From a virus (Duplodnaviria > Caudoviricetes), in the IMG/VR virus record IMGVR_UViG_3300048861_000178, positions 224,001 through 288,000 of that record: a DNA stretch of 64,000 nucleotides; one strand, given 5' to 3'. The notes beneath the pieces are model-generated. The model did not search any database and was not told where the DNA came from. It saw only the letters and a program-made list of their open reading frames with translations. The first letter of the stretch is position 1. Every line of letters begins with the position of its first letter. Position numbers and translations under genes: made by a program. Positions 61,300-61,752 of the stretch are shown here, piece after piece.

Positions 61300-61752
61300 C
61301 TGAAGAGAAAGGCCCGGCAAGCCTGTACCCTCATCGACATCAGGCCTCCTCCTGACTGGTGCCGGTAAGGACTCTCGCGCGAGCCCTCCCGCGGGCTACC
61401 GCGCCGTATGCCTAGACGCGGGGCTGGCTTATTCACGCTGCTGGGGTTTCCTCCTTGTTTCCCCTGGCACCAGCGTTTCCTCGTACATCGATCCTACTCC
61501 TATCGCTGCTCTGCGCCTCCGCAAGCGCTCTTTGGCGAATATAGGAGTCTCCTGTGGAAGTTGGTCGATCGCGTGGATTAAGAGTAAGCTGGCCCCTGTC
61601 TACCTCGATTTTGGTTGAAGTGGTAGTGGTAGTAGAGTCTCTGTGGCTCCGAATCGCTCGGGCATGTTCAGTGACTGGTTTTCCTTTTCGGTACTTGTAA
61701 CGACCTGTATTTAGGCGAGGTGGCGGCCCGAAACCGCTCCTCGCCCTTTTTT
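61300..61752 (+). ncRNA. Putative large structured ncRNA B
   Basis: 15 bp helix 61420-34 / 61582-96 with three G-U pairs, plus at least seven compatible nested helices; no ORF; ends in a terminator. Confidence 0.72.

Follow-up and report, generated by a model that had tools for sequence, protein, structure and literature searches.

What occupies the gap between an SH3DP gene and the divergent DNA polymerase gene in a 64,000-nt stretch of phage DNA (positions 224,001 to 288,000 of IMG/VR record IMGVR_UViG_3300048861_000178, hereafter the window)? The gap is 567 nt long, and the window comes from an FLC9-like chimallivirus record of 315 kb. An earlier note, made from the sequence of the window, had proposed that the gap holds a large, independently terminated structured non-coding RNA without Rfam family, referred to here as RNA B. 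Comparison of homologues bore out this proposal and indicates that the gap holds a real structured RNA of about 450 nt on the + strand, whose transcription is predicted. Its informative feature appears to be that several invariant unpaired loops are complementary to translation-start regions of the same phage. We read RNA B, with a probability of roughly 0.55, as a trans-acting multi-loop antisense repressor exerting negative feedback on the phage's early genes.

Fold, class and boundaries of RNA B

The elements of RNA B, all on the + strand, are as follows.

61270..61302, +: predicted middle-type promoter of the non-virion RNA polymerase (nvRNAP), an AT-rich run followed by TAATG, conserved in homologues
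61297..61752, +: RNA B, about 450 nt, structured non-coding RNA, from comparison of homologues
61310..61324, +: P1 hairpin, GGCA loop; no motif of the family is kept more widely
61329..61370, +: P2 hairpin, covarying stem (loop identity 1.0, stem 0.65)
61345-61352, +: invariant anti-Shine-Dalgarno (anti-SD) core of the P2 loop
61377..61404, +: P3 hairpin
61413..61602, +: core domain, in which P4 (5 bp) and P5 (15 bp) branch into P6 and P7/P8
61447..61461, +: loop of P6, putative main antisense seed, with 61452-61461 invariant
61517..61524, +: P8 loop, invariant and C-rich
61695..61709, +: 3' seed, invariant single strand of 15 nt
61714..61765, +: intrinsic terminator, made of a hairpin (61714-45), a U tract and the phage-wide tail TTATGCCG

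RNA B thus runs from a promoter-like run through P1, P2, P3 and P4-P5 with P6 and P7/P8 to a variable segment, the 3' seed and the terminator. Because the folding energy of the single sequence was only mildly unusual (z of -2.3 on the + strand and -1.9 on the - strand), significance was sought in the comparison of homologues. The alignment comprised 12 distinct homologues, from phages with 80-100 % polymerase identity. Within the core, 95.2 % of alignment cells were paired and both sides had changed in 24 of the 42 pairs; the corresponding values for the 5' domain were 94.6 % and 10 of 22. For core and 5' domain, none of 500 alignment shuffles, which ignore the relatedness of the sequences, matched the observed pairing. 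When the register was slid, 38-50 % remained paired for the core and 25-50 % across both domains.

All nine helices described from the window were present and fully paired, and most were conserved. The 15-bp helix 61420-34/61582-96 (three G-U pairs, no mismatch) kept 15/15 pairs in all 12 homologues. Helices 61413-17/61598-602, 61487-93/61563-69 and 61496-503/61541-48 and the hairpin at 61435-76 were also maintained, as was the TCAGG/CCTGA hairpin around 61340-55, which forms part of a longer stem (61329-70). Two helices failed the comparison: in the FLC9 group, 1-2 of the 6 pairs of 61314-19/61360-65 remained, and hairpin 61310-13/61321-24, an alternative to this helix, was kept and covaried; the 3' arm of 61369-75/61634-40 lies inside an insertion that 10 of the 12 homologues lack. 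Judged from the alignment, both are specific to the window's lineage. Helix 61395-402/61620-27, present in the window, is doubtful, as it competes with the better-kept hairpin 61377-81/61400-04.

Compensatory changes with frequent G-U occurred in every main helix; because many changes pass through G-U, they fix the + strand. The stems drift at 64-88 % identity, whereas the loops, near-invariant and pyrimidine-rich, and the 3' strand are 98-100 % identical. By this comparison, drifting stems with invariant loops are the design of a sequence-presenting RNA. A likeness of P1 to helix 45 of 16S rRNA was considered and rejected, as the pairing register differs.

The gap contains no + strand open reading frame (ORF) of 60 amino acids, as already noted from the window. 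Small ORFs with a ribosome-binding site were absent from FLC9 and from locus L095 and variable elsewhere, none being conserved. On the minus strand, a 64-codon ORF (61126-61320) overlaps the first 20 bases of the gap RNA. The expected absence of an Rfam match was found in the window (Rfam 15, 0 at gathering threshold, best E 5.6), and 16 related loci gave no Rfam hit either. In the window, the Rfam models of RNAIII, RsaE and LhrC had no match, and ARAGORN found no tRNA or tmRNA fold in the gap. Searches for ribozymes and group I/II introns gave no Rfam hit, the flanking genes being intact, and nothing in the comparison points to a ribozyme. Two traits of C-rich-loop antisense small RNAs (sRNAs) were found: conserved unpaired C/U-rich loops on covarying stems, and conserved or co-varying complementarity to the ribosome-binding regions of specific trans-encoded mRNAs. 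No description of RNA B was found in the literature, of which our coverage was incomplete.

Transcription most likely starts at G61297 or G61302, as predicted from the upstream motif, which resembles that of the DNA polymerase gene. The early promoter box TATATTAC is absent ahead of RNA B and precedes chimallin, gp68, gp71/73 and the phuZ operon. At the orthologous position of phiKZ, the mapped promoter P023 is of the middle class and ends in TAATG; the promoter there yields a 61-nt terminated transcript and read-through into gp50, and terminator T022 was mapped at the orthologous place (10.1101/2023.10.13.562163 supplement). Promoter-like and terminator motifs are conserved around RNA B, the mapped ends being those of the orthologous phiKZ site only. 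The terminator proposed to separate RNA B from the polymerase gene is visible as hairpin 61714-45 and its U tract; a simple terminator scan missed this hairpin, and a sigma-70 promoter scan returned nothing relevant. The tail TTATGCCG occurs in 39 copies in the genome, after hairpins; those in the window are at 12951, 31029, 43955, 49881, 50292, 57309 and 61758.

Complementarity of the loops to ribosome-binding sites

Target scans covered the phages' own genomes and genes. The P6 loop is an exact complement, over 10-13 nt, of ribosome-binding sites of chimallin and nvRNAP subunits. In the window's phage its best matches are to the gp74-like and gp55-like nvRNAP subunits, that to chimallin reaching 10 nt; in FLC9 the top three among the 37 genes tested are gp55-like, chimallin and gp74-like. 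The part of the loop that is invariant (61452-61461) is the part that the sites of these three genes share. The 3' seed is complementary over 12-13 nt to the 5' untranslated region (UTR) of the gp71/73-like gene and over 10 nt to that of the gp68-like gene; a weak match lies at 61796-61804, ahead of the DNA polymerase gene. FLC9 keeps a 10-nt match of the seed to gp71/73-like; the match to gp68-like is weak there. One site lies inside the window.

59072..59081, +: ribosome-binding site complementary to P6 over 10 nt; the gene starts at 59091

Of 255 exact complements of at least 10 nt, 27 lay in 5' UTR windows, which make up 2.9 % of the sequence, the share expected; controls gave 9/420, 3/255 and, for random segments, about 2 %, with values of 1-2 % for the reverse strand, the second non-coding element described below and random segments. 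At 9 nt, targets were modestly enriched in early operons (9/81 versus 11/275, p=0.025), and none fell among the 80 minus-strand genes. No conserved target was identified for the P8 loop, and no clear conserved phage target for the P2 loop.

Whether each RNA fits the sites of its own phage better than those of others was assessed over 16 phages. For each RNA and each ribosome-binding region, duplex energy plus opening cost was computed; the matrix was then centred and the phages permuted. Start codons were picked by a generic Shine-Dalgarno (SD) score, those of chimallin by hand; RNA ends were approximated by trimming, and relatedness was handled by keeping one representative per lineage. The own-phage fit was significant for chimallin (p=1e-4), gp74-like (8e-4), gp71/73-like (0.004), phuZ (0.006), polymerase (0.014) and gp55-like (0.04). 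For ribosome-binding regions, 9 of 45 families had p<0.05; control windows placed upstream and in the coding sequence gave 3 and 2. With a set of seven early and middle genes, 0 of 5000 permutations reached the observed fit. Without the discovery clade and within GC strata, this set gave p=0.006 over 14 distant phages, and chimallin alone 0.007. The 12 late or structural families had no own-phage signal (p=0.15-0.53; 0.53 within GC strata without the discovery clade). The own-phage effect amounted to -1.21 kcal/mol, compared with -0.21+-0.19 when the loop letters were shuffled and -0.62+-0.14 when the anti-SD cores were kept (28 shuffles of each kind, none of which reached the observed effect).

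Atypical sites were also tracked by the RNA of the same phage: the complementarity spans 12 nt for chimallin and 13 nt for gp71/73 in L030, 11 nt for an atypical phuZ site in L027, and 10 nt for a gp55 leader that is not SD-like in L024. RP12 and L044 had first been set aside as supposed non-carriers, until the polymerase tree prompted a look behind the inserted genes. There, both have a gap that is structured, shows the P1-P3 layout and has a promoter and a terminator. In RP12, a held-out case, the loop matches its own sites of phuZ (14 nt, rank 1/16), gp71 (11 nt, 1/14) and chimallin (10 nt, 1/17); the L044 RNA fits its own sites only moderately. Taken together, these comparisons demonstrate a conserved fold, exposed invariant loops, and complementarity to and co-variation with the phage's own early and middle ribosome-binding sites.

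Distribution and genomic setting

In the polymerase tree, gaps of 235-800 nt at the syntenic place run through one large clade; the corresponding gap of phiKZ, PA3, Noxifer and Phabio is short (89-201 nt). An anti-RBS (ribosome-binding site) loop sought in the gaps of phiKZ, PA3, Noxifer, Phabio and Psa21 was not found. Distant gaps fold strongly and show long pyrimidine-rich hairpin loops. A covariance model of the 5' domain, built from the close clade only, found the syntenic spot, with weak scores, in L013/L110, L015, L102, L103 and L104; these spots were 6 of its 7 best non-self matches in 503 kb. The model did not detect RP31, FLC4-3B, L016, L021, L025, L036, RTH11 or LucasX.

An unannotated RNA of like layout is present in RP12/RP31 and FLC4-3B, cultured phages of Ralstonia (L052 3004-3440, L053 2776-3201), where one or two inserted genes separate it from the polymerase gene. 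Smaller structured gaps are present at the site in Xanthomonas phages RTH11 and LucasX, which have hairpins in common, and in Erwinia phage SNUABM_54 (L115 3397-3739, L116 2722-2991, L117 2833-3012). The gap of L030 (3267-3976) has an extremely stable fold (z about -18); the long, near-perfect hairpins that precede its anti-RBS domain may be a separate repeat element. In L023 (3538-3991) the SH3DP-like gene abuts the polymerase gene without a gap; the RNA has apparently been lost or relocated in this member of the carrier clade.

In the window, PhuZ lies upstream of RNA B, and chimallin and nvRNAP genes lie downstream. The immediate neighbours are the following.

60853..61254, +: SH3DP gene, phiKZ gp49 orthologue (phrog_3235; PF20287 in homologues; tblastn to PHIKZ049), constant upstream neighbour
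61774..61821, +: candidate promoter, separate from that of RNA B, for the DNA polymerase gene, together with its ribosome-binding site (61804-61812); matches the P6 loop over 9 nt
61822..63951, +: orthologue of phiKZ gp50, a divergent DNA polymerase of family B (phrog_2927, PF20286, 86 % to Burkholderia phage FLC9)

A second conserved non-coding element of about 640 nt, unrelated to RNA B, follows phuZ (window 56640-57376). It is alignable in FLC9, L095 and L101, has no Rfam hit, is missing from many carriers of RNA B, and contains short conserved blocks that could form an intron-like core. Pairing of the RNA B loops with this element was considered and dropped, because its G-rich stretches are not kept in step (by eye, in 4 phages) and many carriers lack it. 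In L030, phuZ is apparently interrupted by a group I intron-like sequence after its first reading frame (L176, G013; core motifs by eye). After phuZ of phage L025, an 850-nt gap holds structured sequence and two tRNA-like genes (L166, G010), and in L102 a GIY-YIG endonuclease gene is inserted directly after the DNA polymerase gene (4729-5553).

Proposed function and its alternatives

RNAIII is similar in length to RNA B. Like RNA B, Staphylococcus aureus RNAIII and RsaE and Listeria LhrC (PMC2790875, PMC2837412, PMC4132741) are large or multi-site RNAs with multiple unpaired C/U-rich loops able to pair with the SD regions of many mRNAs. RNA B differs from them in lacking sequence or Rfam similarity and an embedded peptide gene, in being encoded by a lytic phage of Gram-negative hosts, in its predicted targets, which are the phage's own nucleus and polymerase genes, and in its loop flanks, which change with the ribosome sites of each phage. 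The UTR-derived sRNA candidates of phiKZ and 201phi2-1 are likewise non-coding transcripts that run from a phage promoter to an intrinsic terminator (PMC10914365, PMC11512511, 10.1101/2020.12.06.403469), and TU034 of phiKZ (61 nt) sits in the orthologous gap. Those candidates are 60-250 nt long, two-hairpin and without proposed targets, and no hairpin loop of comparable anti-RBS type is present in the phiKZ gap. Lambda PreS is also a phage sRNA that pairs near translation starts, but it is small, comes from a temperate phage and reportedly acts on host replication (10.1101/2024.10.31.621285), whereas RNA B is a 450-nt multi-seed RNA predicted to aim at phage mRNAs. GOLLD, ROOL and OLE share its size of several hundred nucleotides and its many stems; RNA B stands apart by its lack of an Rfam hit, far lower sequence conservation and loop-centred design. 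RNA B would therefore appear to work like the C-rich-loop antisense RNAs while belonging to no described family, its function being predicted by analogy.

Under the repressor reading, RNA B would be transcribed from its middle-type promoter once nvRNAP exists. Its long stems, whose covariation is observed, would hold out several unpaired pyrimidine-rich loops. The RNA, presumably exported to the cytoplasm, would pair over 8-14 nt with the ribosome-binding regions of chimallin, four nvRNAP subunits, PhuZ and DNA polymerase. Such pairing may block 30S entry and damp early-gene translation, and the outcome would be a negative feedback loop and an early-to-later switch. Repression is preferred because pairing across the SD site blocks initiation in RNAIII-type RNAs and because chmA oligomers abolish ChmA synthesis. 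The latter were 11-nt antisense oligomers directed at the chmA ribosome-binding site of phiKZ (PMC12571901).

Several observations weigh against this reading. The sign of the effect is not readable from sequence, and ChmA is needed during nucleus growth, so that strong repression would be odd. Enrichment in early operons is weak in the window's genome (refined p=0.025-0.08), and a first test was not significant because the promoter pattern missed chimallin. Control windows were not empty (gp74 upstream, p=0.001; gp71/73 coding, p=0.003), and gp68 joined the seven-gene set after the 45-family comparison. Many matches in distant phages span only 6-9 nt, the own-phage fit is weak in L021, L025, L029 and L044, and for many distant RNAs homology is drawn from synteny and layout alone.

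The same complementarity and co-variation would also fit an escort or adaptor. Gripping phage mRNAs at the ribosome-binding site, it would shield them, take them out of the phage nucleus (perhaps together with ChmC) or pass them on to ribosomes. A carrier of seeds would require neither the size nor the conservation of the 190-nt core and the GGCA hairpin. How mRNA leaves the phage nucleus has no explanation so far (PMC12908238), nor does the priority that phage mRNAs gain at ribosomes (10.1101/2020.12.06.403469). We nevertheless consider this role unlikely. Late mRNAs, those most in need of export, show no signal, and a middle promoter fires late for helping early mRNAs. Pairing over the SD site normally represses, and phiKZ, PA3, Noxifer and Phabio do without the RNA, which therefore is not core export machinery.

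Equally unlikely in our view is that the loops have host mRNAs as targets, or imitate the anti-SD tail of 16S rRNA or a ligand of a pyrimidine-binding protein (S1, Rho), the fit to phage sites being a by-product of shared site style and base composition. All loops do contain a generic anti-SD core, shuffles that keep this core already give half of the own-phage effect, and P2 and P8 are without a clear conserved phage target. The effect nevertheless persists within GC strata and against shuffles that preserve the core, only early and middle genes show it, and some matches are not SD-like (the 3' seed with the gp71/73 leader; L024).

Less probable still is cis control of the DNA polymerase gene, with RNA B as an enlarged 5' leader or attenuator that works on read-through transcripts, even though the phiKZ promoter gives both products and P6 and the 3' seed can pair with the polymerase start region. 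The genes with the best and most conserved matches lie at a distance of 8-24 kb, the polymerase gene has its own promoter-like motif, no antiterminator was found, and genes intervene in RP12/RP31 and FLC4-3B, if these are true homologues. A ribozyme, intron remnant or other catalytic RNA, suggested only by size and multi-branch fold, is very improbable given the lack of an Rfam hit, conservation in loops rather than junctions and the variable length of the syntenic gaps, and chance or DNA palindromes without a functional RNA, to which the modest single-sequence z-score might point, are largely refuted by the compensatory changes.

The repressor reading has a broader counterpart, to which we give slightly less than an even chance: that a clade-wide RNA reads a phage-specific ribosome-site 'barcode' on nuclear-shell and nvRNAP mRNAs and controls nucleus building, by repression or escort, as a co-evolving master switch. 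To our knowledge, almost no regulatory RNAs have been characterised in lytic phages. RNA B offers concrete predicted targets (chimallin, nvRNAP subunits and PhuZ), with co-variation of loops and targets over very distant phages, and its presence in the cultured phages FLC9, RP12, RP31 and FLC4-3B makes the idea directly testable. It bears on how nucleus-forming phages turn early genes down after transcription and translation are uncoupled and, if the broader reading is true, chimallivirus development would be under a master switch that acts at the level of RNA and evolves together with its targets.
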